DNA from: a virus
Length of the DNA stretch: 64,000 nt
Virus record (IMG/VR): IMGVR_UViG_3300013296_000001
Location: 4,211 to 68,210 of that record
Reading direction: 5' to 3' (one strand)
Below are positions 35 through 63,614 of this stretch, piece by piece. Position 1 is the stretch's first letter. Every line of letters starts with the position of its first letter. Both the position numbers and the translations under genes were made by a program. Under the pieces are notes generated by a model. It was not told the origin of the DNA. It made no database searches and saw nothing but the letters and a program-made list of their open reading frames with translations.

Positions 35-129
35 GATGCCCTTCCTTTCCACATTCGTACCCTAAATACATGGTAGATGTGCATTTGGAAGGAATCAATA
101 GGATTCTGTGGAAAATATTTTGATCAAAA

Positions 130-2559
130 TTACGGGATAGACACACCCTCTGCCCATGAGTCACCATGATATTCCGCTGAAACTGGCGTCGGTATGCCAA
201 TATCGTTCCCACCCTCTTGCATAAGCCGTCGTACCTCTGCCACGATTGGAGCGTTATACGTGTGCAGTGGCTTCCCGGGTATCACCCTCTTCGGCATGTC
301 CAACACTAGTTCGTCATGTACCTGTAATACGATATGATAGCCACCTTGCCACGTCTTGCCGGCAAACACTTCACCGGCATTGATTCTCTGGAAGAAATCA
401 TGTACTCGGATCATTGCCTTAGTCATCCACCAGCCGGCGGTTCCCTGTACGTGGTAATTGAGAGGTACTGTCGGCTTAATGCGCCCGTAGTCGGTTCTAG
501 TACACATCAGCGGATAACCGCGTTCAGGATCGACAGTCTTATCGGGAATAGTCTCTACGTACCCGTGTTTTTCGGCGAACTCTACCCACTTCTGGTTTAG
601 CTTCTCTTTCTTGGCGAATCGGGCTGCTACTAACTTCTGCGCCCCCGGTCGTCTAGCGGCTTGGTCGGCTGTGCCGCTACCGTCTTCACGGTCTACTGAT
701 CGATATCCCACGGCGAACCCGAAGTTTTTACACCATTGATAGTTTCTAGATCGGTACTTGTCCTTGATGTGGTTCTTGTTATCCATCTGGAACGGTAGTT
801 CTTTAGCCCATATCTCTGGGTAGATGGTGGAGAAGTTCAGTAGGTGTTCACTGCCGAAATAGGGTGGCTCTTTCGACTTCTCGAATAGGTTGATTAACTC
901 TTGTTCGCCTGATTCGTAAGCGGGTATGCGTAGTTCTATGTTCTGGGCATCAAAGCTATACCACTCCCTGCCCGGTGACGGTCCGAATATCCACCGGAGA
1001 CTACGGAGAGAGTATCCCTTGAAGTGGCATTTCTCACACCCTTCTCCCTCACAGTGTTTACACTCAGCCTCTTCCTTTCCGATTTGCTGGCCGTTAGGAT
1101 TACTACATCCGAATCGTGTAGTGGCCGTGCGGGTCGCGTTGAAATTTGGGTAAAGGACGTGCCACTCAGGGTGATAACATTTTTGATCAAATTCTGTAGA
1201 TACTACGCCACATATACGACACAGTTCTACCCCACCGAACTGCGATATGTAGGGGCGGTGCGGCTTACCGGTCGGTAGCTTGCATATATACCGTCCGTAA
1301 CTCTCCATATATGTTAGAGCCGTATTCTTCTTCCTCATCTCCATCATGGATTCTAGAAAGTTAAGTTCACGGCTGCCCTTGTTTAGTATCTCGAAGTAGT
1401 AGGGAATAGCGTTCTTCGCATCGAGTGCCGGGGCGTCTGTCTTTGCCTTCTTATTACGGACTGGTGGTAACTTCATTACATCGAATACGAATGTCCGTAG
1501 ATTCGCGTTTACCGTTTTGGGCATGTCCAGATCATACCCGTACTCGGCTGCTATCTTCTCGCACTCCAGCTTGAGACGTGCTGAGTCTTCTTTGTACTCT
1601 TCCGACAGTTCGTATAGCCGTCCCTCGTGCATTGTGACGCCACGCCGTTCCATTCGATACACAATCTCTGACAGTCGGCGCCGGGCGTCGTACAGCTTCC
1701 ACCGGCCCCGCTCGTGTAACTTCCGTTCAATGACATTCCATAACTGCATTGTCACTTGTGAGTCAACGTCGCTATACTCTTGTAGGAGAATTGGCCAGCG
1801 GTTCAACTCGGCTATCGTTATGTTGCTGTACTTGGCGATGGTATCGGCCCCCATTGCGTCGATCATCGCTATCGGTAGCCAGTAGTCGGCTCGCCAGTTC
1901 TCTTTACCAGCGCTAGGCATTTCGTAGTTGCCTTCAGAGTCCGTCAAGTCTTCTCCGGCGATCATCCATTTGGCCAGTTGGTCTAGCGGACCGTGAGTTT
2001 TGATCAAATTTTTCGATGACTTAGGCGCTCGTCCGAACAACGTCGGCACCGTCTTCTTAGGGGTCGCCTTAGCCGTCTCTAACTTACCTACTCTTATCTT
2101 CGCTTGCTGCACTAACCGACGTGCCTTATGGACTGCCGTTGCCAGTTCGTGTTCATAGGGGCCGATGTCCGTTCCCAGATACATTGCGGCTAGTACCGTA
2201 AGATTCTTCGGCTTGTTGCTCGCCAGGACGTGCGCCGCTAGTAGCGTGTCGTGTGTGATGTCCCACAGCCACCTAGATTCGACTTCGGGAAGGATGGTTG
2301 TCAGTGCAGCCGTGTCAAATTTCCCGTTCTGCGCCACGAACCCTACTCGCCCTCCGTGGTGAGGGTCATTCTGGTAGTCAAAGAAGATGGAGCGGATTTC
2401 GTCTATATCCTCCGAAGGGACTGTTACCTTTCGTGTGTACGGATCAACTTTCCATGTCCACGTTCGTAGGATACCCTCGTCGTTACACGTCGTCAGGTAG
2501 AAAGGGCGGGTTCCGTGGTGATGGTCCGTTCCTGATGTTTCTGTGTCGAACGCAATCAT
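130..2559 (-). CDS. polA: DNA polymerase family A with 3'-5' exonuclease domain
   Basis: N-terminal AFDTETSG exo I motif; TATTRFGCSNPNGQQI; motif A FDAQNIELRI; motif B KNFGFAVGY; motif C LQVHDELV. Confidence 0.95.
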   Translation of the reverse strand: MIAFDTETSGTDHHHGTRPFYLTTCNDEGILRTWTWKVDPYTRKVTVPSEDIDEIRSIFFDYQNDPHHGGRVGFVAQNGKFDTAALTTILPEVESRWLWDITHDTLLAAHVLASNKPKNLTVLAAMYLGTDIGPYEHELATAVHKARRLVQQAKIRVGKLETAKATPKKTVPTLFGRAPKSSKNLIKTHGPLDQLAKWMIAGEDLTDSEGNYEMPSAGKENWRADYWLPIAMIDAMGADTIAKYSNITIAELNRWPILLQEYSDVDSQVTMQLWNVIERKLHERGRWKLYDARRRLSEIVYRMERRGVTMHEGRLYELSEEYKEDSARLKLECEKIAAEYGYDLDMPKTVNANLRTFVFDVMKLPPVRNKKAKTDAPALDAKNAIPYYFEILNKGSRELNFLESMMEMRKKNTALTYMESYGRYICKLPTGKPHRPYISQFGGVELCRICGVVSTEFDQKCYHPEWHVLYPNFNATRTATTRFGCSNPNGQQIGKEEAECKHCEGEGCEKCHFKGYSLRSLRWIFGPSPGREWYSFDAQNIELRIPAYESGEQELINLFEKSKEPPYFGSEHLLNFSTIYPEIWAKELPFQMDNKNHIKDKYRSRNYQWCKNFGFAVGYRSVDREDGSGTADQAARRPGAQKLVAARFAKKEKLNQKWVEFAEKHGYVETIPDKTVDPERGYPLMCTRTDYGRIKPTVPLNYHVQGTAGWWMTKAMIRVHDFFQRINAGEVFAGKTWQGGYHIVLQVHDELVLDMPKRVIPGKPLHTYNAPIVAEVRRLMQEGGNDIGIPTPVSAEYHGDSWAEGVSIP

Positions 2560-2909
2560 TTCTTGTCTCCACTATCTGCCTTGTCGGTAATCCCCACGTC
2601 GTCACGGTAAACATCAAACACCGACTTTGCGTCATCTCTACTAAAACTCGACCCTTTGGTATGGTCAATCTTCATACGAGACGTGCCAAGTCTCCACACA
2701 GCGTACTCCTCGTCGCTCTCGCACAGAATCAAATTCAGGTTGCCGAACCGGACCGGGCGCTTTTCCCCCGCTTGCTGAACTTCCATTTTCTTGTCAGCAA
2801 GCAATCTTAATCTCGATGCAGTCTCGGTGTCTACTCTTATTACTAGGTCTACGTCACTGCTAGGCTTTGGGGTGCCGTATACTCGACTCCCTGTTAGGAA
2901 TGCGAACAT
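2556..2909 (-). CDS. Minimal nucleotidyltransferase (Pol-beta superfamily)
   Basis: FLTGSRVYG...SDVDL = GS-x-DxD motif. Confidence 0.75.
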   Translation of the reverse strand: MFAFLTGSRVYGTPKPSSDVDLVIRVDTETASRLRLLADKKMEVQQAGEKRPVRFGNLNLILCESDEEYAVWRLGTSRMKIDHTKGSSFSRDDAKSVFDVYRDDVGITDKADSGDKK

Positions 2910-2921
2910 AGTTGTAGTCCG

Positions 2922-5377: not shown

Positions 5378-5425
5378 CAGGACACGCACGCACTAGACGC
5401 ACACTAGAATTTTGATCAAAATTCT

Positions 5426-6820: not shown

Positions 6821-7042
6821 CTAACCCTTTCCTTCGTTGTAACCTTGTTTGGTGGCATCCGCTACCGACTGTTTCTCTAGACAAGCCGTGTGGGCGAACT
6901 CTTCTCCGAAGTTAAATGTTAGTTTTTGTGGATACACCATCTGTCTAAACTCTAATGGTGCGTCCTTCGGTGTACCAGATAGACTTATCGGTAGTTCACA
7001 TATACGGCAGACTCGTTTCTCCCTAGCCTCTGCAACAGTCAT
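6821..7042 (-). CDS. Small hypothetical protein with CxxC...HxxC
   Basis: Tightly packed between neighbours. Confidence 0.55.
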   Translation of the reverse strand: MTVAEAREKRVCRICELPISLSGTPKDAPLEFRQMVYPQKLTFNFGEEFAHTACLEKQSVADATKQGYNEGKG

Positions 7043-7491
7043 TTCAGTTCCTCGAAGAGTGTTTCCTGCCGAGTTAGTCCGACTGTAGAACCTTCAACTA
7101 GGTAAGCGTCAAGGTCTGTTGCTCCCCCCTCAGTTAATGGCGAGTATACGCCGAATGGCATCTGCCAGTGTCCAGAATCTCTATCCTCGAAAATGTCATA
7201 CTTTGGGTCTTCCATTGCAAACTGAGCACATTCGTACCATTTACACAACTGTTCTAGCAGTGGGTCAAGTGTCCTCTTGCGAAACAGTGCTATATTCTCT
7301 GGAGAAAAGGCAGTCTCCCATCTGGCAAAGAAATCCGCCGGATTCTCCCTTACGATACCCGCTAACCGCTGTTGAAACTGCTGTGGAGTTTCCTTCTTAC
7401 CCTGATACTGCGCGGGGCGTTTGATGACGTTGTAACGGACTCCTCGAATCGGATGAGCGCCTAGAATTTTGATCAAAGTTTTTTCATCCAT
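7039..7491 (-). CDS. PD-(D/E)XK (Cas4-like) exonuclease, C-terminal fragment
   Basis: IRGVRYNVIKRP continues the nuclease fold; own ATG at 7491 inside the GIY-YIG gene end. Confidence 0.6.
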   Translation of the reverse strand: MDEKTLIKILGAHPIRGVRYNVIKRPAQYQGKKETPQQFQQRLAGIVRENPADFFARWETAFSPENIALFRKRTLDPLLEQLCKWYECAQFAMEDPKYDIFEDRDSGHWQMPFGVYSPLTEGGATDLDAYLVEGSTVGLTRQETLFEELK

Positions 7492-8165
7492 TTTGCAACC
7501 CTCTTTTTGGCTAATGCAGCTTTTACTGCCTCTGAGATTTTGGCACAATGTTCCGGGGTTTTTGGCCTACCTCTTCCGGCTAACGACATCTTTAACCTAG
7601 TCTCTGCGGACGCTTTTTTACCTTTATTAGCCGGCTCTCTTCCTAGAAACGACCTTAGAATTCCTTCAGATATTTTGGCTTTACTCTCTTCTGAGTGTTT
7701 CCATCCTTGCCGGTTTTGCCATAGGTTTGCCTTATGCTCTTCTGACTTAGGCTTGCCCTTGAGTGCGTTGCTAATCTTTTTCTTTATCCAATCCGCCATT
7801 ACAACACCACGTTTAACCTCTGACATTTTCTTTTTAGTTTCTTCTGTGTGCCTGAACCCGAGACAGTTACCAGCCGTAGGGCTACGGTTATATCCATTCT
7901 CAAATTTATAAGGCTTCAGTGTGTCTAACCAGTGTTGCTCTCTAAGTAAACATTCACTAGGATCGCATTGTTCTGGGATGGTTATTACGAATCCTAGTGG
8001 CCCGTACTTATTCCAAGAGTTTTGTAAGTATGTAATTGGGTGGTATCCTCCATTTAATGCGCGTAAATGGTCATTGATGCGCCGTTCTATGTCACAACTA
8101 CTACCTACATAAACCTTCCCGTTGTAAACGTTTTTGAAGATGTAGACTCCACTTTTCGGTTTCAA
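7473..8165 (-). CDS. GIY-YIG homing endonuclease with NUMOD3 repeats
   Basis: SGVYIFKNVYNGKVYVGSS; HTEETKKKMS and HSEESKAKIS repeats; AT-rich. Confidence 0.92.
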   Translation of the reverse strand: MKPKSGVYIFKNVYNGKVYVGSSCDIERRINDHLRALNGGYHPITYLQNSWNKYGPLGFVITIPEQCDPSECLLREQHWLDTLKPYKFENGYNRSPTAGNCLGFRHTEETKKKMSEVKRGVVMADWIKKKISNALKGKPKSEEHKANLWQNRQGWKHSEESKAKISEGILRSFLGREPANKGKKASAETRLKMSLAGRGRPKTPEHCAKISEAVKAALAKKRVAKWMKKL

Positions 8166-8911
8166 GTGTTACCTCCTTTTGATATTTGGCATAGTGCTAC
8201 TAAATAGAGGAGCATTTGTAAGTCCCCGGTCAACTGCCGACTGATGGCTAACCCCTCTATCCGGCTTTTCGTCTTGTGGTCCCCTATCCAGATGCCCGAA
8301 CTTGTAGCGTCTTTCACCAACACAACCTCATCCCACTTGCCACGGAGCCGCACTGTTCGGCCGCTTGGCAGTGTGTACGGCACGTTGAACACATGCTCTT
8401 GCAGTAGGGGAATTACCTTGCGGGAATTTTGATCAAAATTCTGTGTCCAATACTCGACGTAGATCGGGAACATCGTCCGACAGATGCCGTACCAGTTGTT
8501 AATCGCATCTCTGTCGAAGGGATACTGTTTACTTAACCCGTTCATCCCGTAGACGTAATCCTTTAAAGCAATTTCCCACGCTGACTGATCTGTTCCGGTT
8601 ATAGGACGCAATTGCCCGTCCATACTACATTGCTTCTGTGCTAGTGCCTCTTCACAGATGTGCCACATATTGCCGAATTCCATCCGTGCATTGAACGACG
8701 GTGCCGGTGCCCACCCTTCGAGATACTGCACTCGAAATCGCTCTCGACAGACGATGAATCGTGAGAGCATCGAGAACGTAATACCGCCGTTCTCCTCGTT
8801 CGACTCCGGCCCTTTCCATAGTGGCGGACGCTTGACGAACTGGTTCTTAATTCCCATCCCCTTTAACGTCTCTGAGACCGAGGGCTTTCTTGCCTTCATT
8901 GGTGTACTCAC
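8162..8911 (-). CDS. PD-(D/E)XK (Cas4-like) exonuclease, N-terminal fragment
   Basis: TFSMLSRFIVCRERF...GNMWH...LRGKWDEV...IGDHKTK...LQMLLY. Confidence 0.8.
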   Translation of the reverse strand: MSTPMKARKPSVSETLKGMGIKNQFVKRPPLWKGPESNEENGGITFSMLSRFIVCRERFRVQYLEGWAPAPSFNARMEFGNMWHICEEALAQKQCSMDGQLRPITGTDQSAWEIALKDYVYGMNGLSKQYPFDRDAINNWYGICRTMFPIYVEYWTQNFDQNSRKVIPLLQEHVFNVPYTLPSGRTVRLRGKWDEVVLVKDATSSGIWIGDHKTKSRIEGLAISRQLTGDLQMLLYLVALCQISKGGNT

Positions 8912-9089
8912 ATGCGGTAGGGGTTATAGTTAGATACTTGGCGGGGTGTAATGCAAAGTCCATCAATATCGCCTTGTGTACGTCACATGCTCCGAATTTC
9001 TTGTGCGTGCAGTCGTTACACCCGTCGATCATCTCCGTCACGAACAGTTTCTTTGCCCGGTTGAGCCTCTTTCGGAACTCCGGCGACAT
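8847..9089 (-). CDS. Hypothetical protein (CxxC-x-C-x-H)
   Basis: Fills the gap but overlaps both neighbours. Confidence 0.4.
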   Translation of the reverse strand: MSPEFRKRLNRAKKLFVTEMIDGCNDCTHKKFGACDVHKAILMDFALHPAKYLTITPTACEYTNEGKKALGLRDVKGDGN

Positions 9090-9276
9090 GGCCATAGGCA
9101 ATCTTCCTTTGTGCAGCAGTTAACTCGGATTCGATCAACTCTTGCCTGTGTATCGGTGTGTCACCCGGGGCGACGATGCCGATACGCACCTTGTTACGGT
9201 CGATGGACAGGACTGTTATGCAGATAGTTTCCCCGATCCATATGTTTTCTCCACCCTTGCGAGATAAGACGAGCAT
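9016..9276 (-). CDS. csrA: Carbon storage regulator CsrA/RsmA homologue
   Basis: MLVLSRKGGENIWIG...VRIGIVAPGDTPIHRQEL. Confidence 0.92.
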   Translation of the reverse strand: MLVLSRKGGENIWIGETICITVLSIDRNKVRIGIVAPGDTPIHRQELIESELTAAQRKIAYGHVAGVPKEAQPGKETVRDGDDRRV

Positions 9277-9300: not shown

Positions 9301-9885
9301 TCAAAATTTTCCGTGCTCTTGTCGGTGTCGATTATTCGCCGTTATACCCCCTCTCCCGTTACGGCACTCCCACATTGCATCTGGCACCCCGGCAACGGTG
9401 ACAACCCATTGTAAGTCTCTCAATACCGTCTTGACACATACCCCACACGCCGCAGCGATCGCTAACGCCGTCCACCCTTCGACGGCGTACATATACAAGA
9501 ACATTCGAGTCCGCATCGGCCAGTATCTTCGATCTTCCTTAGTGTCCTCCCATAACTCGCTAACCCGTTCCTCTGGGCTTGGGTTGTACTCTCTGTCCAG
9601 AACCTCGATAACCTCAGTGAATCCGTTCGATCGGTCCGGCTCAAACGACAGGTACTTACTGAACTGGCATACGTCCGAATGCCTGGACCGTCTTACCCCG
9701 TACCGTGCCGCAATCCTTGCCAGTCCGATCGGATTCTTTACGTCCTTCACTAGCCCTATCCGCTTCACTGCTTCCAGCCATGCCGCACCGACGTAGGCAC
9801 CGTAGTCCTCTCCCGTCTGGTATGCCATACGTCGGGACTCGGTGAACGCAGCTATAACACAGACATCAGGTACGTCTACTTCCAT
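9301..9885 (-). CDS. Sigma-70 region 4-like HTH protein
   Basis: C-terminal MFLYMYAVEGWTALAIAAACGVCVKTVLRDL helix-turn-helix. Confidence 0.55.
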   Translation of the reverse strand: MEVDVPDVCVIAAFTESRRMAYQTGEDYGAYVGAAWLEAVKRIGLVKDVKNPIGLARIAARYGVRRSRHSDVCQFSKYLSFEPDRSNGFTEVIEVLDREYNPSPEERVSELWEDTKEDRRYWPMRTRMFLYMYAVEGWTALAIAAACGVCVKTVLRDLQWVVTVAGVPDAMWECRNGRGGITANNRHRQEHGKF

Positions 9886-10608: not shown

Positions 10609-11163
10609 TCAAATTTCATGTGATGGGTAAACCATCCTGGCGGTTTTCCTACGTCTGCAAAACTCAGCCAGAAGTAAAGCATCTGCCGTCTTCAGCGTGA
10701 CATTCTCTAACGGGAACATCTGTTGTGCCACCCCCTTCAGGTAGTTCTTCCATTCCGTCTTACCCTCTTCCTTACCCTTCTTTCGTAACCCCATCCCGCG
10801 CATCCATTCTTGCGGTCGGACAAGTTGCCACCGTAACCCAGTGAGCTTACCGAGCGTGGCCAGCGTTCCCCGAATCTCCCCGTTGTTCAGACCGAACGCG
10901 AACGCGCTAGATACTCCCTCTCTCGGCAGTGAGTGTACGTCTTCCACGAATACCCATGTCGAAGGGCCGGTGACACTCCATAGCCAGTCCGTGATATCTC
11001 GTGTCGTCTGCGGCATCGGAACGGCTGAGTAGGTGACTGGACTAGTGCCGTGTATCACCGCCATCCCACCACCAGAGCCGCCGGGGTCGATGCCGACGAA
11101 CCGACTAACTTCCCACGGTAGGGGAAGAGGGTCAGGGAACGTCTTGAACACTCTCTCTGTCAT
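10609..11163 (-). CDS. RuvC-like Holliday junction resolvase
   Basis: VGIDPG...FVEDV...SAFAFG...VRPQEW...ADALLLA. Confidence 0.85.
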   Translation of the reverse strand: MTERVFKTFPDPLPLPWEVSRFVGIDPGGSGGGMAVIHGTSPVTYSAVPMPQTTRDITDWLWSVTGPSTWVFVEDVHSLPREGVSSAFAFGLNNGEIRGTLATLGKLTGLRWQLVRPQEWMRGMGLRKKGKEEGKTEWKNYLKGVAQQMFPLENVTLKTADALLLAEFCRRRKTARMVYPSHEI

Positions 11164-11363
11164 CGGTCCCGTACCTCCACAACTAGACTCGTGCCCCTGT
11201 CTTCGATCGACACCCGGACGCCGTATCGGCTCGCCATATTTCTTACTTGCTGCACCATAGCCGATTGCGAAACGTGGTAGTCCCTTCCTTGCTGTAGCTC
11301 AAAGGTAGGGTAGCTAAACCAGTAATCCCACTCGTATTTGCTGTGCCGCTTCTGGAGTCTCAT
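11160..11363 (-). CDS. Small basic hypothetical protein
   Basis: First gene after the leftward promoter motif; ATGA overlap with the ruvC-like gene. Confidence 0.55.
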   Translation of the reverse strand: MRLQKRHSKYEWDYWFSYPTFELQQGRDYHVSQSAMVQQVRNMASRYGVRVSIEDRGTSLVVEVRDR

Positions 11364-11394
11364 ACCGTCACACTTGGGGTTGCATCTCAAGACA

Positions 11395-11406
11395 CTTATT
11401 ATTATA
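11395..11406 (-). promoter_or_regulatory. Putative -10 promoter element (TATAATAATAAG)
   Basis: Same 12-mer as at 5348 and 27895; heads the leftward replication operon. Confidence 0.55.
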
Positions 11407-11620
11407 CTAATAAGGAAAGTACGACTAGACAGGAATTCGGCGGATTTCCAGAATTTTGATCAAATTTCTGGATTCCGGCAAGAAACGTGCTTCCCGCCGT
11501 GGGGAAAGTATTTTCCGAATTCCGTCCGTATCGGCCATTTTTCGTTAGACGCGGACCCGTCTGGAGCGTATACCAGTCTGTGCGGCGGGAAATTTTGATC
11601 AAAATTCTGGAGGGTCTATC

Positions 11621-14214: not shown

Positions 14215-14266
14215 ACTTCCTACTCTATCACACCACTCCCCGCTAATAACGGGGGTGGTAACGATC

Positions 14267-14830
14267 ATGTTTCTTTGTCATGCCTGCGGTAACAGCACCA
14301 AGCCACGCGAGCAACGGACCGTCCTACCGATCTACTATGCTGGCACTCCTCGGCAGATCAAACGGGAATGCTGGTTGTGCCCTCGATGTGCTCAGGTCGT
14401 CTATCAGGATAAGCCGTCCGAACAAGTGGCAATTGCTCGATTGAACGCGGTGATTGCCATTCGGATCGCACAAGATGCCGAAGCATACCGACGGGCTGAA
14501 CTAGAGCGGATCGGTGAGGAGAACTACCGTCGGGAACGGGATCGGATGCGCCTTGCCGCGAAGATGGTTAAGACGATTCTAGTTCCTGAAGTTGACCACC
14601 TTGATACACCACCCGTTAAACCCCGCGGGTCGTACCAACTGCCGGAGTCGGCTCCGCAACCTACCCTGTCGGAACTGCTGCGGAACGCTGGCATCAAACC
14701 GCAGTCCCCGTTGAAGCGCGTCAAGTCGCACAATGCCAAATGCCTTGTGTGTGGCAGGACTGCGGCCGGTGGAATGAGCAACGAGACTGGTGTATACTGC
14801 CATCGGCACATAGACCACGCGAAATTTTGA
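14267..14830 (+). CDS. Hypothetical zinc-finger protein
   Basis: CxxC pairs near the N-terminus and CxxC...CxxH at the C-terminus; stop TGA supplied by the palindrome. Confidence 0.6.
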   Translation: MFLCHACGNSTKPREQRTVLPIYYAGTPRQIKRECWLCPRCAQVVYQDKPSEQVAIARLNAVIAIRIAQDAEAYRRAELERIGEENYRRERDRMRLAAKMVKTILVPEVDHLDTPPVKPRGSYQLPESAPQPTLSELLRNAGIKPQSPLKRVKSHNAKCLVCGRTAAGGMSNETGVYCHRHIDHAKF

Positions 14831-14839
14831 TCAAAGTTT

Positions 14840-14920: not shown

Positions 14921-14948
14921 TCAACCGTCTCTAGTGTGGAGAATCGAA

Positions 14949-26627: not shown

Positions 26628-26924
26628 CTACTTCGATCGTGACGGATGGGACTTTGGCATCGGTCCTCTTAATAGTGCATCTTCTACTAATCTCGGAGCA
26701 TCTTGAACTGCTAATCCCGCGTCTCGTATAGCGATGTCGAGTTGGCAGACGGGGCAATCGTCTACATAGTCCCCGTTGTAGTGTTCACACCCTGACGACG
26801 TTTTCGATCGAATGTCGTCTATGTCTCTCGTCAGTTGGTTGACCTTCCTTCGTATCTCTCGGAACAGATCGGCTTGTTCATCTGTTAGGGTCTTAATGGC
26901 TGTGCCCTCTAGAATTTTGATCAA
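26628..26924 (-). CDS. Hypothetical protein (start uncertain)
   Basis: Fills the gap between two palindromes; CxH...CPVC. Confidence 0.5.
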   Translation of the reverse strand: MIKILEGTAIKTLTDEQADLFREIRRKVNQLTRDIDDIRSKTSSGCEHYNGDYVDDCPVCQLDIAIRDAGLAVQDAPRLVEDALLRGPMPKSHPSRSK

Positions 26925-26937
26925 AATTCTCGTTACC

Positions 26938-53619: not shown

Positions 53620-56600
53620 CTACTTGCTCGACTTCGTGAGTAACTTCCGAATAAACTCGACGTGTGCCGGTGTTCGTCCTGTCAAGTGTGATACATAACT
53701 GTCAATAATCAGAGGGTTGTTACCGAGATACCCACTGCTCCCCGTATGATTCGCTGGGTTTGTCTCCACTACCTTATACCCCTCTGTCGTCTTCACGATA
53801 TCCGGCGCGTAAATCTGGCCGTGCTTCTCCGAATGTGGCAACCGGTCAACTGCCTGCCGTGCTGCCTCTGCCATTGCTCTAGTGTCGGCATTGTCGAACA
53901 CAACCGGCAAGTGATCCCCCTTCAACCATGTTGAGTAGGGCACGACTTCCGCCTTGCCATTACGTGTGACGACGTGTACCCGCCCCTCTTGTCCGTACTT
54001 GATCGTGACTCCGGCTGCTCGGTCTGCCTCACTGATGCCGACGACGTTAAACGCCGGCTGAACCATATAATCCTTACCGCCCCCCGCTAGTGCAGCACCA
54101 TGTTCGTGCTGTGCCGCTTCGTGTGCTTTGTCACCCCAATGCCGTACTTCACCGTCGATCGTCTTATTGTACTTGTCAGTGCCGAACAAGTACGTATCTC
54201 CACTCGTGTGCTTCAGTCCGACCACGTTGTTAGACTCGTCTCGGTGGAGTGAGAATCCGTACTTGGCAACACCAGCACCGGCATTCCAGATATTGTTCTG
54301 CGCCTCCCCTTGCATCTGTCGGGCACGCTGCGGGAAGTAGATACCATACCCTGCCGCGGCATCGTCGCCGTATGCCTTGACAATCCACTTATCCTTTCCG
54401 TAGATTGAATCAAACTTCGCCGTCACGTCTGGTGTCAAGTGCGTTACCTTCTTACCAGCAACCTTGCTCACGTCCTCGCTCGTTTCTAGTCCCGGCAACC
54501 GCTTCGACTCTTCGAGCTTATCCCTGAGTGTCGGATCGGATACCGTGAACGACCCTTTGCGCCGGGGGTGTACGTCCTTCGCCTCCGTGCCGCCATATTT
54601 GGGGCTGGCGGACGACACCAACGGCTGTGGCGACGACGGATCAATCCTATCCGTCTGGTGGGACATCGTGATGCCGTGCCGGTTCAAGTACGACTCACAG
54701 AACTGCGCGAGATGCCGGCCGTGATCGCCGTGGTCGAATGCGTCTTTGTCCCACCCCCCTTCATACTCGACGCTCTTTTTCGTGTGCTTGCCGGTCCCCA
54801 CACCACCGACGGCGGCTAGAGTCGCCTCAACGCCGTTACCTTCGACGTGATTGCGCAAGTGCCCTAACCAGTCGGCAACTTGGTGTTCTCCCTTGCTACG
54901 GAAGAACGACTCAAATCGATCGATCTTCTTACGTACCTCGTCAACGTGGGCCGGCTGACGTTCGACAGCCTTTGCCACTACTTTTGTGGGAAAGCCTTGA
55001 GGAGACGTTTTACCAGTGGGTCCACCGTCACTTCCCCCGCTTCGATCTGCCGGCGTGTCACCGGATCGCGTAGGATGTCCCGCCACTTGTCCGCTTGTGC
55101 TTGTAGGTCTTTCTTGAGTTGGTTTGCCTCTTCCGCTGTCACTTCGTCCGCCATGAGATTGCTCCTTCTTCTTAGGGTTCTCGATCGTGTGTTGCTTCGT
55201 GTGGAATCGTGTCGTTAGAATGTGTCGGTGCAGCGCCGATACTGCGCTCGATTTCTTCTGCTGTGGAGTTACAGGATTCACAGATTGCTGAGACTGCACC
55301 TTCGCGTCTCGCTTCTCCATGTGCGTATTGATCGCCTTCATAACGTGTGGATTACCGGCGACGACACGACCACCTTTAATGTAGACGTGGTGTCCTGAAT
55401 CCGTGGTGATCCATCGCCCGCCTGTGAGATGCGAAAACTTCCCTTGACCACCACTCTTGTCGTTGGCGACTACGAAATTTTGATCAAAATTCTGGTTGTC
55501 GATCTGCGAGCGTGATACATCTCTCTTGCCAGCATACCAACTCCTGCCCGTCGCCCTCTGCCCCGGCGCTGGTGCCCATTCGCATCGGCAGTGAGTGTGC
55601 CGGGGGATCAACCCCCGCGCACTGTTCACCGTGAACACCTTACCAGCCAGCGGAGCACACTTCTTACACGGTTGCCCCGTCGTGTGGTACTCGACGTTAG
55701 CCATGATCTGCTCAACGCCGAGCGATTCCATCGTGTCTAACTGCCCTTCGGCGTGTACGCGCACCATCTCTGTGCGAGCGATCGCAAGTGCCTTCTGCTT
55801 GCTAATCTCTAGTTGCTTACGTAGTTGGTTTGCTACCGTTTCTGGTTTGGTGCCGTTCTTAACACCCCTCTCGACAATTTTGATCAAAATTGCACCCATC
55901 TCTCCCGTGATACCCTGAATCTGGTCGAGTGCAACGGCGCTATTCGTTGTGAGGCTATTACTCTCTATGTTCGCAATGAACTGCTCTCTTCGACCGTTGT
56001 AGTGATCGACACTCTCTCCTACCTTCTGGGGTGCCGACCGCTGGTAAGCGTTATGTACACCCTTCATGTAGCCTTGACGTGTGTATTTTCTCCAGAGAGA
56101 TTCCCCGCACGGTCCTTCTCTGGAAGAAAGAGTATACCGTAGCCAGTCCCGAACGGTATCAGCGACGTTGGCCACTAAATTTTGATCAAAATTGCTGTTG
56201 CCGGTTACTGAGCCACCGAACGCAACGTAGAACCTGTCGCCGTTCTCTTTCTGATCGAAGATAACCCCGTCGTGTCCGTGTTCTTTCGCCTTTTTAATGA
56301 TGGGGTTTTCAAACGAGGGATCGGAAAATTGTCGCTGCGTTGCTTCGACGTGTAGGGGATTCTTGAGTTTGACCTTGCCAGCGATTATGCTACCCGATCC
56401 CCCTACAGTTTCTCCGAATGCTTCGGCGTAGTCCTTCTCTCGTGACCAGAACACATCTCCTGCTGCCTTTAACCCTGTTCGGTTAAATCGGTGTGCGTCT
56501 TCTGCAATCGGCTTACCTGTTAGTTCGCCAATCTTGACGTGTGAACCGTAGTCGGCGTGACCAGTGCCCCCATCTTTTGCACACGTATTCCCCTTCTGGA

Positions 56601-57828
56601 AACCCCCCTCTCCAATACCGCAGTTCTGACCCGTTGTCTTGTCGGTGTTACCTACCAAGTTAGGTGGCGTTGGGTTCTCCGATAGCACTCTCGTTGCCAG
56701 GACGATGGCACTAGCGCCGTCTTGTGTCTGCTGAAGTGCCGCAGCAAATACGGCACAACGCCAGTCCAGTACGTCGTTAGGCAATGGGGCAGTGCGTGGT
56801 GTCTTGCTGTTAGAATTTTGATCAAAAATCAGGTTAGCGATTAACCCCGCATTATCCTTGTCACTGTTGCCCACCGGCACCGTTGCCACCGGCACGTTCG
56901 TTCGTAGCTTCCCCTTTGTGTAGTACGTGCCTTTCTTCTGACCGACGCCGACGACGGAACTCCACCAACTTGCGACACGACTACCGAACCCCGTCTTGAC
57001 GGACTTCGCCGACTGGATGGCGTGCGATGTGGCGTCCTTCACTAACCCTTTAGCGGCTCGATACGTGGCGCGAGGGTCTTTCGCCGTCGAGTACAGTAGA
57101 TAACCAGCGGTTGCGGGTGGCACCATTGATGCGATACCGAGTCCTCCGGCACCCAGACCAGTTGTGTGCAGTCCGAGTTGAACCGGCTTAAGCAACGCCA
57201 CGTCAAGAGACGATAAGACTCCCCGTAATCGTCTCGACTCTTCATCACTCGCGCCCCTCTCTTTTGACACACGTTCGGCTAACTTCTGCCCGACTGTCCA
57301 ACTGACGAACGCGGCCTGAGTGCCGGCGCGTGTGACGTAGTACGTCGCCGTGGCCGCCTTCTGCATCGGACCGGGCAGCTTCGATACAGCGTGTACGATG
57401 CCGTCTCTCACCCACTCTTTCGCCGCATGTTCGATGTGTCCAACTTTCGCCCCGGCCTTGATGATCGCGGGGACGACACCACTGACAACAGCGTGTCCGG
57501 CTGTTGCTGCGAACCGTCCTATCCGATCCCGTGTGTACGTGCGGTTGCCGATGACGGCATAGAGAGACTTATCATCGTCGTTGCCGTTATTGCCATCGCC
57601 ATTGAGTGCCGCAAATGTCCAACTGTTCTCCAGTATGTTCAGTGCTAAGTCATACGTGATTTGCTCGTGTTGCTGTGACTGAGCATTCTCGACAGCAGAC
57701 GGCAACAACGTCAGTACGTCGTTTGCTACCTTATCGAATCGTCGTGTCAACTCGGCTTGCATCTGACGGCGTAGTGTGGCCGTCCGTGTGGGGTCAATGC
57801 GTAGGGGATTACGTCGGTGGATTGGCAT
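53620..57828 (-). CDS. MuF (Mu gpF/SPP1 gp7) minor head protein fused to ART-like and ATP-grasp-like domains
   Basis: RIDPTRT N-terminus; ALAIARTE...CKKC...IPRHTHCRC; VFWS...KLKNPL...GHDGVIF...YVAF; WIVKAY...YMVQP...EGRVH...PDI...VVETN. Confidence 0.8.
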   Translation of the reverse strand: MPIHRRNPLRIDPTRTATLRRQMQAELTRRFDKVANDVLTLLPSAVENAQSQQHEQITYDLALNILENSWTFAALNGDGNNGNDDDKSLYAVIGNRTYTRDRIGRFAATAGHAVVSGVVPAIIKAGAKVGHIEHAAKEWVRDGIVHAVSKLPGPMQKAATATYYVTRAGTQAAFVSWTVGQKLAERVSKERGASDEESRRLRGVLSSLDVALLKPVQLGLHTTGLGAGGLGIASMVPPATAGYLLYSTAKDPRATYRAAKGLVKDATSHAIQSAKSVKTGFGSRVASWWSSVVGVGQKKGTYYTKGKLRTNVPVATVPVGNSDKDNAGLIANLIFDQNSNSKTPRTAPLPNDVLDWRCAVFAAALQQTQDGASAIVLATRVLSENPTPPNLVGNTDKTTGQNCGIGEGGFQKGNTCAKDGGTGHADYGSHVKIGELTGKPIAEDAHRFNRTGLKAAGDVFWSREKDYAEAFGETVGGSGSIIAGKVKLKNPLHVEATQRQFSDPSFENPIIKKAKEHGHDGVIFDQKENGDRFYVAFGGSVTGNSNFDQNLVANVADTVRDWLRYTLSSREGPCGESLWRKYTRQGYMKGVHNAYQRSAPQKVGESVDHYNGRREQFIANIESNSLTTNSAVALDQIQGITGEMGAILIKIVERGVKNGTKPETVANQLRKQLEISKQKALAIARTEMVRVHAEGQLDTMESLGVEQIMANVEYHTTGQPCKKCAPLAGKVFTVNSARGLIPRHTHCRCEWAPAPGQRATGRSWYAGKRDVSRSQIDNQNFDQNFVVANDKSGGQGKFSHLTGGRWITTDSGHHVYIKGGRVVAGNPHVMKAINTHMEKRDAKVQSQQSVNPVTPQQKKSSAVSALHRHILTTRFHTKQHTIENPKKKEQSHGGRSDSGRGKPTQERPTSTSGQVAGHPTRSGDTPADRSGGSDGGPTGKTSPQGFPTKVVAKAVERQPAHVDEVRKKIDRFESFFRSKGEHQVADWLGHLRNHVEGNGVEATLAAVGGVGTGKHTKKSVEYEGGWDKDAFDHGDHGRHLAQFCESYLNRHGITMSHQTDRIDPSSPQPLVSSASPKYGGTEAKDVHPRRKGSFTVSDPTLRDKLEESKRLPGLETSEDVSKVAGKKVTHLTPDVTAKFDSIYGKDKWIVKAYGDDAAAGYGIYFPQRARQMQGEAQNNIWNAGAGVAKYGFSLHRDESNNVVGLKHTSGDTYLFGTDKYNKTIDGEVRHWGDKAHEAAQHEHGAALAGGGKDYMVQPAFNVVGISEADRAAGVTIKYGQEGRVHVVTRNGKAEVVPYSTWLKGDHLPVVFDNADTRAMAEAARQAVDRLPHSEKHGQIYAPDIVKTTEGYKVVETNPANHTGSSGYLGNNPLIIDSYVSHLTGRTPAHVEFIRKLLTKSSK

Positions 57829-57889: not shown

Positions 57890-60001
57890 CTACTTCTTAC
57901 CGCTCCAGAACCAGTTAGCGAGCTTCCGTGAGAAGTTGCCTAGCGTCGTGTTAGTGACTAGTGGCACGTCTTCAGTCTCAACCTCTAATACTGGTGTTGC
58001 CACTACAACCGGCTTGACCTTCCGTTCCTTGTTCCGCACAGGCTTAGCTGGTTTCGGCATCGGTGGACCTTGTGCGATCGTCTTGCCCGTCTGTGGGTGT
58101 ACTAGACTTGTGCCGGGCTTCATCTGGACTGGTGGCGGTTCCGGCGGTGGTGCCTGGGGGTCGGGTGCCAACCCCTCGTCAATCATCGTCTGCTGTTTCT
58201 CCATGTCCTTCTCTTGCATACCCTGTGCGTGCTCCTCACCAGCCGCTAGAATCGCCTCTGCCTCATCGTCGTCGTACCCTAGCTCTCGTGTGAGGAATTC
58301 GTGCGGCGGGAACCACGACTGAATATCTGCTTGCGTGTACTGTGCCATTGCCGCCGTGCGAGTCTGCGCGAGTGTGCCTTGCTGAGCGCGTGTCATGCTG
58401 TCCATGTCCGGCCACTTGATACGCAGTCCCGTCGGTCGTGGTAGCACTCCCAGCATGACAAGCCGAGTGATAAACGGAATAATGATGCCCGGTGTGATGT
58501 ACACGTTCTGCCTGTTGCGCAGTTCGTCGTTCCACTGGCTATCGTCTTGAGATGATGCTAGTTCGCCCCGTTCACTCCCCTTGAATATGCGAATCGGGAT
58601 GCCGAGCTTGATACAGATGGCCTCTACCAGAATGTTGATGAACGGTGTGGGGTCTGTTACCGTCGGAGCAATCGACTTGAGCGAGCCGTTCTCTAACCAC
58701 CCTGTCCGCTGTAGCGAATTCTGGATACGCCAGAAGAAATCCTTCATTCCCTGTGCGTTGACGGGTGGCTTGGTGCCGTCTGGCGTCGTGAACTCCCCGA
58801 TCAGTATCGTCATGCACGTCTTCCAGTACCCCTCCGCACTGGCGTACAGTGGCTTGCGTGCCGACAGAATCTCCCTCAGTACGGGTTCACACCGCGGCTT
58901 GGCGAGGATTTCACTGGCGTCGGCCGTGTGATACCAGTCCGCAACGTGTTGCACTCGTGTCCAGTGGACGTTATACGTACCTGTCGGCCCACTAGTAACA
59001 CTGCCACTACGACCGTACTCATTGAATGTGACACGGTATGATGTGGGTTGTCCGTACCGCGGTGACGTAATGTTCGTTTCGTATGACACCACTTCGGCCA
59101 TCGACTCGGGCAGGACACGGAGGTACATCAAGCGACGATTTTTGATCAAATTTGCGTTGGTGCTGAACGTGTACCGAGGGTACAACCCCCGATCATCATA
59201 TTTACCCGTGTACTGCGCGTCGGTGCCGTCTCGTGACCCACCGTCCTTCGGACGTGTTTTATCTCGCCCTTCTTTGATAGTCGCCTTGTCACCCGGCATA
59301 CTGTTCAGTTCTTCCACCCCTTCGGCCGGATCACTAAACGGCAGTCCGTCGTCAATGCCGAAGAATATGACGCCGTACTGACCGATGCCGCTGAGAATGT
59401 CCGCTCTCAGTAGGTACGACCAGATGGGACTACCTTGCTCCTGATCGAACATTGAATCAGAGTCACTGACATCGTTGGGCTTACCGTTCTGACCTTTGCC
59501 GCTCTTCTTAGCCGTACCATTCGTCCCGTTGATGAATCCACTATTCGGCAGTAGCGACCGGCCGAGTGTTGACCATGCCTTCTCAAACTCCGTCTGCTCC
59601 TCACCGTCCTCGTTCTCTGTTACTTCCGGCGTCACCTGGAAGCACTGTTTCGGCAGCACTTCTACGACTCTGGCGGCGATTGATGAACCGTCGTACAATT
59701 CCTTGTAATACGATGAGTCTTGAAACCCCTTCGGAAAATGACACTCGCCGTCGAGATCGCGCTTCTCGTCGTTGAGTGCGGAGAACAGTTCTCGACGTGA
59801 CAGATTGATGTTTGCTGTAATCTCTCTCAGTGCAAACAGCTTCTCCAGTTCGATCTCTCTCAGTTCACCGAGTCCGTTCAGTGAGAGTGGCATCTCAACG
59901 GCGCCACTCGTTGATACACTGCCGTTATTGACGTGTACAGTAGTTGGTGTTAGATCGCCGAGTCCGGCGTATACACTCCCGTCGGTTACTTCGTGCGGCA
60001 T
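57890..60001 (-). CDS. Portal protein (DUF1073-like)
   Basis: YKELYDGSSIAARVVE...YGQPTSY...VHWTRVQH...IPIRIFKGSERGELASSQD. Confidence 0.85.
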   Translation of the reverse strand: MPHEVTDGSVYAGLGDLTPTTVHVNNGSVSTSGAVEMPLSLNGLGELREIELEKLFALREITANINLSRRELFSALNDEKRDLDGECHFPKGFQDSSYYKELYDGSSIAARVVEVLPKQCFQVTPEVTENEDGEEQTEFEKAWSTLGRSLLPNSGFINGTNGTAKKSGKGQNGKPNDVSDSDSMFDQEQGSPIWSYLLRADILSGIGQYGVIFFGIDDGLPFSDPAEGVEELNSMPGDKATIKEGRDKTRPKDGGSRDGTDAQYTGKYDDRGLYPRYTFSTNANLIKNRRLMYLRVLPESMAEVVSYETNITSPRYGQPTSYRVTFNEYGRSGSVTSGPTGTYNVHWTRVQHVADWYHTADASEILAKPRCEPVLREILSARKPLYASAEGYWKTCMTILIGEFTTPDGTKPPVNAQGMKDFFWRIQNSLQRTGWLENGSLKSIAPTVTDPTPFINILVEAICIKLGIPIRIFKGSERGELASSQDDSQWNDELRNRQNVYITPGIIIPFITRLVMLGVLPRPTGLRIKWPDMDSMTRAQQGTLAQTRTAAMAQYTQADIQSWFPPHEFLTRELGYDDDEAEAILAAGEEHAQGMQEKDMEKQQTMIDEGLAPDPQAPPPEPPPVQMKPGTSLVHPQTGKTIAQGPPMPKPAKPVRNKERKVKPVVVATPVLEVETEDVPLVTNTTLGNFSRKLANWFWSGKK

Positions 60002-61231: not shown

Positions 61232-61232
61232 T

Positions 61233-63086
61233 TTATCCTCCCACTCCGATGTACGCTGGTTGATGTTTGCCGATCATGCCGTGAATCGCTAGCACGAGTG
61301 CGTCGGCGTCGTCTGGGCTACGTCCTATAATCTCTTCTAGTGACTTCTGGTATACTGACTTACTCTTCGTCCGGTCCATGCTCTTCTTCCGCTTCGGGGG
61401 GAGCCACACTTGCCCTTCTTCGTTGTACAATATGGGGATCGGTGCGAGTTGACGGCGTAGCTCGGGGTCAGGGGGGAGTGCGAATCCGTAATAGGGTTCA
61501 CTACTACCTGCTACAGAATTTTGATCAAATTTTCCAACACTCTTATCCGGCCCTAATCCATACTGTCTTGAGGGGTCTAGTAGTTCGCGCAAGTCGTAAT
61601 ACATCTCCACACGCTTGCTACTGAATGTGTACCGTGTCTCTCGGTCGTCCTCGCTCTCCGTCCGGTTGAGCCTACCACCGGCCTTCGGCAACTGTGATGC
61701 GGCACCACCGAATCCGATCGTCTGAACGTCGTATCCTTTCGCACGGAGCCGGTCCGCCGCTTGCTTGCCGCCACCGCCCCGGTCGAAGAACACCATTTCG
61801 GGTGGCACTCGCAATCGCTCCATGAATGCAATGGCTTCTCTCGGAATGCACTCCGTATCCGGTGTCTTCTTGCTCGTCTTTTCGATCACTCCCCACTCAT
61901 CGACTGCTACCATTGACGTACTGTCGCCACCTTCTGCGGGGTCAATGCCGATTGCCTTCGCACGTCGCCGTAGTCCTCGCAACATCGAATAGCGACGTTC
62001 GGCACGGTTGAGCCAGTCGGGCGGGAAGAGAAGTGTCTCGGCACCTTCCCAAAATTCGGCGTCTAAGCTAACACACTGACGTATCTTGTCCCACATCGCA
62101 CGACGCTTCTCATAGTCGTTGTATGGTAGGACACCGGGGATCAGTACCTCACCTGTTGGTATCTTCCCCGCCTTGATCTGTGCTAGACCTAGCTGTACGT
62201 TCGGACTGTCCTCTGCTGTGATCTTGATTACCTTGCGGTAGTACCCCAACGCAATCGAATGAGAGGATTCGGTAGAGTGTCGTAAGTTGGTAGCATTTTG
62301 GGCATTGTGCGATTGATCCTGTACTGATCCATGTGAACTCATGCCCACATTTGGTACACTCTGCGACCATACATCACCGTTGGTAGAATTTTGATCAAAA
62401 TTTCCGTTACCATTCAGACCACTACTACCCCGTACCTTCCGTGGGATGTCACCCCCCTTGTCCTTGTCACCGTCACCCTTCACCGAGCGATAGAAGAAAT
62501 TTGTTGTCGGGTAGGCGTTCCCAATTGCTAGAATGCGACGTGCCCATGTCGTGCCGACTGTATATGTATGGTCATCAATGCCTGATGCCTCATCACACAC
62601 CATCATTGTTTTTGGTATGCCATCTCCCGTCTCTGCTACGTGGTGCCCTAGCATCCCTTCGCCACGGGCCGCAACCCTGGCGATCACATACGATGTGGGA
62701 CACACTTGCTTGGTATCGAAGTCAACAATTTTGCGTAAATGCAGATGGTTACAAACGAGTGGACCCCCTCGTGTCGATTCGAGAGGGTATTTGCACGTCT
62801 GGATAAACCGTCGTATTTCGCCCCATAAAACACTCTCTAGTTGCTCGTGATCGACGGACGTGGTGACAATACGACATGGTGTACGGGTGAGGAAGAACCA
62901 TATAACGGCATACCCTGCAACAAAGTCTTTCCCGACCATGTTCGCAGCAGGTACGATAGTCTCATCGTTTAAGTGTATAGAGTAGAGGATATCTCTTTGC
63001 TTCCTATAGAAAACTATCGAGGGCCATAGAAATCTGGCAAATTGAATAGGGTCTCTTACCTCTGCAATTAAGTTTTTGACCGACAT
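61233..63086 (-). CDS. terL: Terminase large subunit
   Basis: AANMVGKD Walker A, VCDEASGI Walker B, AIGNA, IGIDPAEGGD, SPDDADALVLA. Confidence 0.92.
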   Translation of the reverse strand: MSVKNLIAEVRDPIQFARFLWPSIVFYRKQRDILYSIHLNDETIVPAANMVGKDFVAGYAVIWFFLTRTPCRIVTTSVDHEQLESVLWGEIRRFIQTCKYPLESTRGGPLVCNHLHLRKIVDFDTKQVCPTSYVIARVAARGEGMLGHHVAETGDGIPKTMMVCDEASGIDDHTYTVGTTWARRILAIGNAYPTTNFFYRSVKGDGDKDKGGDIPRKVRGSSGLNGNGNFDQNSTNGDVWSQSVPNVGMSSHGSVQDQSHNAQNATNLRHSTESSHSIALGYYRKVIKITAEDSPNVQLGLAQIKAGKIPTGEVLIPGVLPYNDYEKRRAMWDKIRQCVSLDAEFWEGAETLLFPPDWLNRAERRYSMLRGLRRRAKAIGIDPAEGGDSTSMVAVDEWGVIEKTSKKTPDTECIPREAIAFMERLRVPPEMVFFDRGGGGKQAADRLRAKGYDVQTIGFGGAASQLPKAGGRLNRTESEDDRETRYTFSSKRVEMYYDLRELLDPSRQYGLGPDKSVGKFDQNSVAGSSEPYYGFALPPDPELRRQLAPIPILYNEEGQVWLPPKRKKSMDRTKSKSVYQKSLEEIIGRSPDDADALVLAIHGMIGKHQPAYIGVGG

Positions 63087-63104
63087 ACCTTCTACTACCC
63101 CATA

Positions 63105-63578
63105 CTATATATGTTTCCACGATTTCCTTTTTACAATATCTCTGATATTGGTGCCACTGGTGTTAAATAGTCTAGCAAGCACACCAGCGCCATTAGTTCT
63201 ACTATATCTCCTATACCTGCGCCGAATCTCTTTAACTTGTGCTTCGGTTAGTTTAGAGTTTCCTTGATCCTCCCCTTTTGCTTGTCTACCTTTCTTATCT
63301 CTATCGGCCATATTCGCTTGGTGAGTTCCTAAGAACAAATGGTCAGGATTCACACAAGCTCGGTTGTCGCACTGATGAAGTACATGCAGACCAAATGCTA
63401 TACCTCCGTGGGTTAAAACCCAACTCAGCCTATGTGTTAGCCACTTTGTACCAAACCTACCATAACCGTTTTCGAGTATAAGGCCAGTCCACACCCAACA
63501 CCTTGTTCCTAAGACTGGATGTGTAGGACCGAACTTATTCACTTTCAACCAGAACCGCTGTGTAAGGGTTAAATGCAT
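63105..63578 (-). CDS. HNH endonuclease (HNH_3 type)
   Basis: RFWLKV...CWVWTG...GYG...HRLSW...VLHQCDNRACVNPDHLFLGT...N..D. Confidence 0.92.
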   Translation of the reverse strand: MHLTLTQRFWLKVNKFGPTHPVLGTRCWVWTGLILENGYGRFGTKWLTHRLSWVLTHGGIAFGLHVLHQCDNRACVNPDHLFLGTHQANMADRDKKGRQAKGEDQGNSKLTEAQVKEIRRRYRRYSRTNGAGVLARLFNTSGTNIRDIVKRKSWKHI

Positions 63579-63614
63579 ACTACACCTACTGCATGAAAAT
63601 TTTGATCAAAATTT

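Follow-up and report, generated by a model that had tools for sequence, protein, structure and literature searches.

A dense and evenly spaced array of an exact palindrome in the genome of an uncultured rhizosphere phage and its close relatives

That lytic phages can contain dispersed palindromes has been documented since the Cluster O study of 2015, with no function assigned to them. In these mycobacteriophages (Corndog and relatives) a 17-bp dyad repeat, TGTTCGG-N3-CCGAACA, is present in 34 invariant copies over about 70 kb; approximately one third of the copies is located in coding regions, most of them are not tied to promoters, their orientation is meaningless and the phages are not obviously temperate (PMC4351075). 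A dimeric DNA-binding protein with a role other than transcription initiation was inferred by the authors (Cresawn et al., 2015; PMC4351075). Here we describe an array which matches this type in kind but not in lineage, as it has a different sequence and its phage shows no DNA match or close protein match in the phage collection. It was found in an uncultured phage, in the following termed phage G, in a window of 64,000 nucleotides which corresponds to bases 4211-68210 of a single contig of 75,155 bp (IMG/VR record IMGVR_UViG_3300013296_000001). The element in question is a short AT-rich palindrome with the invariant core TTTGATCAAA, and with about one site per 0.9 kb the array is, to our knowledge, the densest of this type. 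The initial annotation of the window took the array for a candidate undescribed system, a view which is weakened by the Cluster O palindrome with its more than 30 copies, one third of them in coding regions (PMC4351075).

The array of phage G resembles the Cluster O repeat in the invariant arms of the inverted repeat, in the dozens of copies spread over the entire genome, in the fraction of about one third lying within genes, in the missing link to promoters and in the irrelevance of site orientation; both are found in siphovirus genomes of roughly 70 kb, from phages which are not obviously temperate. It differs in several respects: sequence and phage are unrelated, and the hosts apparently are as well; copies are twice as frequent (78 versus 34), AT-rich and without a central spacer; even spacing could be demonstrated for phage G; and in a sister phage the orthologous sites have undergone a concerted change of dialect.

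Phage G originates from rhizosphere metagenomes, in which it was detected in two samples. The contig has a terminal overlap of 123 bp, and the genome is therefore considered complete, with a length of about 75,032 bp and a GC content of 53%. It contains 78 copies of TTTGATCAAA, i.e., one per 962 bp, 12 of which lie outside the window. The 66 exact copies within the window compare with 0.07 expected from dinucleotide shuffles, and 46 of them keep the full 12-mer (0.00 expected); the symmetric consensus of the sites is RRAATTTTGATCAAAATTYY. When synonymous codons were shuffled, a mean of 2.6 copies within ORFs was obtained (maximum 6) versus 33 observed, a number which refers to loose ORF calls, the curated tally of truly intragenic copies being about 22. 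The mismatch spectrum of the genome is equally distinct and comprises 78 exact copies, a single copy with one mismatch (1.5 expected by chance) and 15 copies with two mismatches. Chance and codon bias are excluded by both types of shuffles. An assembly artefact is excluded as well: an independent Logan assembly of the source run gave an identical contig of 75,062 bp, the second sample, which has a lower coverage, also contains the phage in contigs that break at the sites, as expected of real repeats, and diverged relatives from other metagenomes carry the array. The analysis was based on assembled contigs. A literature search with the exact core yielded nothing relevant. The counts of the initial annotation (66 cores, 46 12-mers and perfect 20-mers at 5406 and 26911) and its division into 44 junction and 22 intragenic copies in the window were reproduced, and its statement that early, replication, glycosylation and structural modules all carry copies was borne out, on both gene strands. 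The enrichment likewise outlasted the codon-aware null, and the copies, which might have been assembly artefacts, proved to be genuine.

The whole array in the window extends from 118 to 63611 and has no strand. Its cores start at positions 119, 1182, 1999, 3078, 3963, 5411, 6745, 7468, 8428, 9296, 9890, 10604, 11455, 11594, 13238, 13457, 14826, 16971, 17550, 17982, 19226, 21196, 21967, 23579, 24142, 25222, 25659, 26615, 26916, 27812, 28174, 29146, 29705, 32315, 33841, 36587, 37587, 38268, 39078, 40211, 42551, 43419, 44197, 45238, 46025, 46989, 47615, 48902, 50253, 50829, 51772, 52358, 52784, 53581, 55479, 55879, 56181, 56817, 57873, 59141, 60091, 60343, 60621, 61520, 62390 and 63601. The gaps between the sites of phage G have a coefficient of variation of 0.574, compared with 0.98 for random placement, and none of 20,000 simulations was equally even. 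The even spacing persists under a null model with sites locked to gene junctions, and both extremes of the distribution are curtailed, the smallest gap being 139 bp (random mean 13) and the largest 2746 bp (random mean 4748).

About two thirds of the copies are situated in short intergenic spacers, in which the stop codon of the upstream gene typically adjoins the site or is the site's own TGA. In 32 site orientations an ORF with a Shine-Dalgarno sequence ahead of it begins 19-63 nt (median 28) from the site centre. The remaining third lies deep in genes, among them those of the DNA polymerase, the nuclease, glycosyltransferases, a 792-aa protein, the MuF-like head protein, the portal and the terminase. 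These intragenic copies occur preferentially in the larger junction-to-junction gaps (P = 0.003) and use two stop-free reading frames, read as F-D-Q or L-I-K. The arms of the sites are symmetric and vary independently, without compensatory pairing.

A search of related phages for the motif revealed the array in two further metagenomic phages, in one with the same core and in the other with a dialect of its own, at similar densities (one site per 913 and 874 bp as compared to 962 bp in phage G). The first, L205, is a 28-kb JGI contig which is syntenic with phage G and encodes proteins of 50-87% identity; it has 24 copies of the core in 21.9 kb. At junctions orthologous between both phages the core is intact and the flanks are at chance identity. 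Three intragenic sites lie at identical codons in both phages, and other sites, specific to one of the two, arose by residue-changing point substitutions and not by insertions (VLVK/VLIK, ILKK/ILIK, FDAS/FDQR). The sister phage is represented by two contigs of one Logan sample, L226, whose TerL is 73% identical, and L321. Its dialect is TTTGACCAAA, with 26 sites in 21 kb on the pattern GAAATTTG-NN-CAAATTTC, most of which read GAAATTTG-AC/GT-CAAATTTC (centre AC in 14, GT in 10, AT in two and GC in none). The AC/GT centre occurs in both orientations, 14 to 10, independently of the gene strand. Where codons of phage G and the sister phage are orthologous, ATC is changed to ACC in the portal gene (Ile to Thr) and GAT to GAC at two sites of the MuF gene, and the flanking residues match the flank consensus of the respective phage. 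In the four stretches analyzed (phage G first) the gaps have coefficients of variation of 0.57, 0.67, 0.50 and 0.24 versus about 0.9-1.0 for random placement. Neither the array nor any other enriched palindrome is present in the distant relatives, which number more than 20 and share at most 50% identity in TerL or the Sak4-like protein. A metagenome scan with a single protein gave no match, and an alignment-based scan returned only distant relatives without the array. Since more than 20 distant relatives are array-less and three close phages are array-bearing, the array is, judged from sequence comparison, a recent invention of one clade, which is under strong selection at the DNA level and evolves in concert over the genome.

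Individual sites illustrate this pattern. The perfect 20-bp palindrome at 5406-5425 is located at a gene junction and has an identical second copy at 26911-26930; at the orthologous junction in L205 the core is kept and the flanks are unalignable. The closest pair of sites (11455-11603), 139 bp apart, lies on either side of the early control region from which the leftward and the rightward gene blocks diverge. In the junction copy at 14826-14835 the internal TGA is the stop codon of a zinc-ribbon gene, and this copy has a counterpart at the identical position in each of the three phages with the array. The copy in the gene of a 262-aa glycosyltransferase (25222-25231) is read L-I-K and uses the same codons in L205, where the adjoining codons differ. 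Of the four copies in the gene of the 1402-aa MuF-like head protein (55479-56826), two are orthologous to sites of the sister phage, with the change from GAT to GAC and flanking residues according to the sister consensus. The head protein itself (53620-57828) is very long, with 1402 aa in phage G and 1388 aa in the sister phage. The copy in the portal gene (59141-59150) is read N-L-I-K, and the sister phage has N-L-T-K at this place (ATC to ACC). Two copies in the large terminase gene (61520-62399) are lineage-specific; the sister phage has unrelated codons there and a site of its own elsewhere in the gene. A GC-rich SGNH/GDSL gene on the minus strand (40231-42513) has no internal copy over 2.3 kb and is flanked by the copies at 40211 and 42551, which is consistent with a slow build-up of sites through mutations of genes already resident.

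The sites are real, exact and evenly spaced, they are under strong selection at the DNA level and they co-evolve as a set. We assign a probability of roughly 0.55 to the explanation that the palindrome is a recognition word in duplex DNA for one clade-specific protein which acts on the whole phage chromosome. Recognition of duplex DNA and not of a hairpin is indicated because the symmetric arms vary independently without compensatory pairing, and reading by a dimer because the arms of the sites in phage G are symmetric. That one site serves about 1 kb of DNA is suggested by the nearly constant density and by a spacing which has a floor and a ceiling. The reader would probably be encoded by the phage and would, in phage G, probably bind as a symmetric dimer. 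Selection would hold the density at about one site per 0.9 kb along the entire chromosome, and sites would be placed first in the short stretches that separate a stop codon from the ribosome-binding site after it; in long genes the site would be written into the coding sequence. Each site would most likely be a nucleation or anchoring point for about 1 kb of DNA, and as a result the phage chromosome would be coated, organized, protected or silenced, without any promoter signal for single genes. The initial annotation had proposed a binding site for a dimeric protein that coats, compacts, segregates or silences the phage DNA. What stands of this proposal is the selected word at the DNA level, evident from exact cores with diverged flanks, residue-changing substitutions, even spacing and symmetric arms; the protein reader, its dimeric state, the gene encoding it and the outcome of binding are inferred, in line with what the authors of the Cluster O study concluded for their array (PMC4351075).

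Two proteins of phage G were considered in detail as candidate readers; a 76-aa protein (11160-11390), a 194-aa protein (9301-9885) and TerS complete the list of clade-specific and DNA-binding candidates. The first is a basic protein of 191 aa, encoded on the plus strand at 14255-14830, in which a helix of about 50 residues connects two zinc ribbons, one at either terminus. In searches of 5.8 billion and 1.8 billion proteins its homologues were found only in L205, in the sister phage and as one remote partial match on a 2-kb contig, and none was found in the array-less relatives. In all three array-bearing phages the gene holds a syntenic position and ends with the TGA that belongs to a site. 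The structural model of the protein (pLDDT 65) has no PDB match, and a fold search gave only generic resemblances to zinc ribbons. In the sister phage the homologue (P0142, L321 6137-6676) has an N-terminal ribbon enlarged by 20 inserted residues, and its C-terminal ribbon is missing; these altered ribbons coincide with the asymmetric site centre of that phage. The second candidate, which had been named earlier as the specific reader, is a 652-aa protein encoded on the plus strand at 14934-16892. Its tails are basic, its N-terminal part weakly resembles ParB/KorB and its C-terminus has a fold like MutS domain I. Its fold matches to KorB and ParB-N are weak (VIA Z 4.0 and 3.7), and that of the C-terminus to MutS domain I is at Z 6.0. 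Homologues including the tails are encoded in the array-less relatives L206, L207 and L218, so that this protein alone cannot account for the array and its role as specific reader is not supported. Members of this family (P0003-P0019) have tails rich in lysine, proline and alanine and a conserved N-G-Q-H-R-type motif in the weakly ParB-like domain; the family is widespread on viral contigs with or without the array, the fold resembling MutS domain I being noted in the member from phage G. By its co-occurrence with the array in three phages the zinc-ribbon/coiled-coil protein is, weakly, the better candidate of the two. Systems of the KorB/OB (plasmid RK2) and ParB/parS type share with phage G a short palindrome with AT-rich flanks which is dispersed over a mobile replicon. 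In contrast, RK2 has 12 operators and phage G 78 sites, the ParB-like family does not track the sites, its fold match is weak and ParA was not found; neither ParA nor an integrase or repressor was recognized among the proteins of phage G scanned, some small ORFs lying outside the scan.

Several observations weigh against a dimeric, phage-encoded reader. The centre of the sister sites is asymmetric (24 of 26 with AC or GT, none with GC), which a simple symmetric homodimer does not predict. A complete lack of tolerance for near-misses is rather the mark of enzymes (methylases, nucleases) or of translocase signals than of operators. A classic role in repression or partition would be without its usual partners, as no integrase or ParA was found among the scanned proteins. 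Other clade-specific ORFans could share the co-occurrence in three phages which distinguishes the zinc-ribbon protein, and the reader may instead be encoded by the host. The exactness of the core together with the asymmetric sister centre leaves room for an enzyme that marks or cuts the sites, or for a translocating machine that reads its own word.

This last possibility, unlikely but the most probable of the alternatives, takes the sites as a self-DNA word for a moving DNA-processing machine, with a function in nuclease action, recombination or packaging comparable to that of uptake sequences or Chi, by which phage and host DNA would be told apart within every 1-3 kb. In Neisseriaceae and Pasteurellaceae the uptake sequences DUS and USS occur at about one copy per kb, more evenly than random, in permissive reading frames and in lineage-specific dialects. 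The array of phage G agrees with them in density, in a spacing which is evener than random, in the use of only two stop-free frames for intragenic sites, by which peptides are shaped, and in dialects which differ by lineage among related phages. Recognition is also all-or-none (78 exact copies, one with a single mismatch), and with a PD-(D/E)XK nuclease, a Sak4-like ATPase and a RuvC-like resolvase the phage encodes enzymes suited to such a machine; replication restart is among the processes that might read the word. The dialects with GATC and GACC would in such a system genetically isolate close phages which share a host. However, DUS and USS are words of bacterial chromosomes with the competence machinery as their reader, whereas the word of phage G marks, as far as the genomes scanned show, only the phage. 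The symmetric consensus of 16-20 bp is far longer than the cores of Chi or the uptake sequences, Chi depends on orientation while the sister dialect occurs in both orientations, 14 to 10, regardless of gene direction, and headful packaging requires only one pac site.

Next in rank, and rather improbable, are operators of a repressor in the manner of stoperators, which would serve a genome-wide shutdown in a carrier or lysogenic state or the shut-off of early genes. In keeping with this, the intergenic sites lie directly upstream of ribosome-binding sites and two sites bracket the divergent early control region. The divergence of dialects between relatives resembles the immunity specificities of Cluster A phages (PMC6550527). 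The stoperators of the Cluster A phages L5 and Bxb1 further share with our array the tens of dispersed sites, mostly in short intergenic spacers, which diverge between relatives (PMC6550527, PMC9283540). Stoperators are asymmetric, though, oriented with transcription and read by the monomeric immunity repressor of a temperate phage, whereas the sites of the clade of phage G are symmetric or free of orientation and many of them, about 30%, lie deep in genes, where they fill gaps in the spacing. Integrase, ParA and a recognizable repressor are missing among the proteins scanned, and no prophage relative was detected in 401 Planctomycetota genomes.

Still less probable is an enzyme with site specificity, be it a methylase, a nickase or some other enzyme that modifies DNA, by which the sites would be chemically marked or nicked and not simply bound. 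An exact 10-bp core without near-misses resembles the specificity of an enzyme, the sites of phage G have a GATC centre, and the phage encodes two methylases: a Dam-family enzyme of 153 aa (genome 3370-3831, left of the window, L001; PF05869, E 1.5e-27) and an N6/N4 methylase of 493 aa with a large insertion in the catalytic domain (genome 71508-72989; L002 3409-4890). Moreover, radical-SAM, methyltransferase and glycosyltransferase genes are common to phage G and L205. On the other hand, phage G has 284 other GATC sites, which is the expected frequency, so a Dam enzyme needs no such context; a palindrome nicked on both strands would fragment the genome; and the advantage of even spacing would be left without an explanation. 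In the sister phage 24 of 26 sites are without GATC. As phage G encodes a Dam-family methylase, its GATC centre is probably methylated, but since the sister array runs almost without GATC, sensitivity to methylation is not a conserved property of the system, and the suggestion of the initial annotation that adenine methylation of the central GATC might affect binding is weakened accordingly. Avoidance of GATC was rejected as the cause of the sister dialect, as GATC is only mildly depleted in that phage (37 versus 53-60 expected). No family match to a 7-deazaguanine pathway or another known DNA-modification pathway was obtained in phage G, where only generic radical-SAM hits below the cut-offs appeared.

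An interpretation of the sites as transcription or RNA signals, namely as a phage promoter, as a terminator or as a hairpin by which RNA is processed or stabilized, is very unlikely. It could draw on the 32 site orientations with an ORF preceded by a Shine-Dalgarno sequence at 19-63 nt (median 28) from the centre, and on a few sites which come after GC-rich terminator hairpins. But the palindrome is present equally in all temporal modules and inside genes (22 of the 66 window copies), which makes it a poor class-specific phage promoter. A sigma-70 scan found promoter-like sites no more common than in shuffles, and TTGATC as a -35 box would put the -10 box over the start codon; a sigma-70 promoter or a terminator therefore found no support. 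An RNA hairpin was discarded: the stem of the perfect 20-mer has only -3.4 kcal/mol and a weaker copy from within a gene failed to fold when tested, the arms vary independently, position +/-7 of the sense strand in L205 has 10 A/C mismatches but only 3 G/U pairs, and there is no Rfam match.

Better promoter candidates than the palindrome are available in the genome in the form of a separate strand-specific motif and four sigma-70-like boxes. The former, TTCTCTGGAAGAAA, is dispersed in nine copies of one orientation (window 384, 13182, 26232, 28719, 37598, 43082, 51717, 56116 and 60008, plus strand) and one copy of the opposite orientation (29552). It reads TTTCTTCCAGAGAA on the sense strand of leftward genes and is often situated directly upstream of a start codon or adjoins a copy of the palindrome; the sister phage has a comparable word directly after one of its sites (L226, near 1240). 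Because of its strand specificity TTTCTTCCAGAGAA is the better candidate for a phage promoter or translation signal. The sigma-70-like box TTATAATAATAAG is found in four minus-strand copies ahead of leftward gene blocks (window 5348, 11395 and 27895; genome 1320). The copy at 11395 lies in the divergent early control region, and a near-identical word occurs in the distant relative L207. These boxes are probably strong promoters of the host type.

Least credible are short repeats spread by mobility or gene conversion, or recombination linkers for the exchange of gene cassettes, for although identical words of 16-24 bp stand at many gene junctions, homing endonuclease genes are numerous and some replaced genes are flanked by sites, the copies arise by point substitution in pre-existing, aligned codons and not by insertion, which rules out a mobile element of the REP or MITE type, a site is present at 7 of 12 junctions where gene content switches between phage G and L205 versus 5 of 11 others (a rough count by eye), and such repeats would lead one to expect neither an even spacing nor a dialect that changes in concert.

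The gene content identifies phage G as a tailed phage with a family A DNA polymerase, a tape measure protein, a MuF-like head protein, a portal and a large terminase. Further genes encode TerS, CsrA, ThyX, a uracil-DNA glycosylase, the Sak4-like ATPase and the RuvC-like resolvase, the match to a primase being weak, and there is a block of radical-SAM, methyltransferase and glycosyltransferase genes along with many homing endonuclease genes. One of the latter, of the GIY-YIG/NUMOD3 type, interrupts the PD-(D/E)XK nuclease gene (window 7039-8911), which is intact in L205 and L206 (367-385 aa). The homologue of CsrA, an RNA-binding global regulator, is encoded at 9016-9276 of the window, and counterparts are located at 3442-3639 in L205, 4171-4389 in L206 and 194-376 in L207. 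No DNA relative of phage G was found among deposited phages and no close protein match in the phage collection.

The Shine-Dalgarno sequences at its genes suggest a bacterium as host of phage G. The portal matches those of haloarchaeal viruses; an archaeal TATA box was dropped as the identity of the site, since Shine-Dalgarno sequences come after the sites. A near-threshold domain of the Gemmata type (TIGR02996) hints at a planctomycete host. No relative of the terminase and no prophage relative were found in 401 Planctomycetota genomes, and an Atlas search gave no clue to the host. In the same 401 genomes there is no dense array of the 12-mer, the maximum in any of them being 18 copies. Scans of IMG/VR and GTDB with the 16-mer returned chance-level matches, single copies except for one stretch with two among the stretches listed, and no dense stretch (at most two copies in one) among those listed from GTDB species genomes. 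Mimicry of a known host word accordingly finds no support in the IMG/VR and GTDB matches listed or in the 401 Planctomycetota genomes. Two of these genomes (G009 and G021) have 91 and 79 dispersed copies of the core TTTGATCAAA versus 16 of the reversed control word. As the control word contains CTAG, which is often avoided, this modest excess is probably uninformative; the core could also be the site of a host regulator.

The array of phage G is distinctive in its density, its exactness, its even spacing, the concerted change of its dialect and the remodelling of essential proteins. The clade offers an unusually clean study case, with exact sites, a control of spacing, two natural dialects and a short list of candidate readers, and it is therefore testable with synthetic DNA and expressed proteins although phage and host are uncultured. 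The array shows that residues of essential proteins, namely the portal, the terminase and the head protein, can be set by a DNA word which is itself non-coding. This is of relevance to annotation, to the recoding of phage genomes and to models of how phage proteins evolve. If it is true that the reader protects or marks the phage DNA, the array would represent a new layer in the conflict between phage and host.

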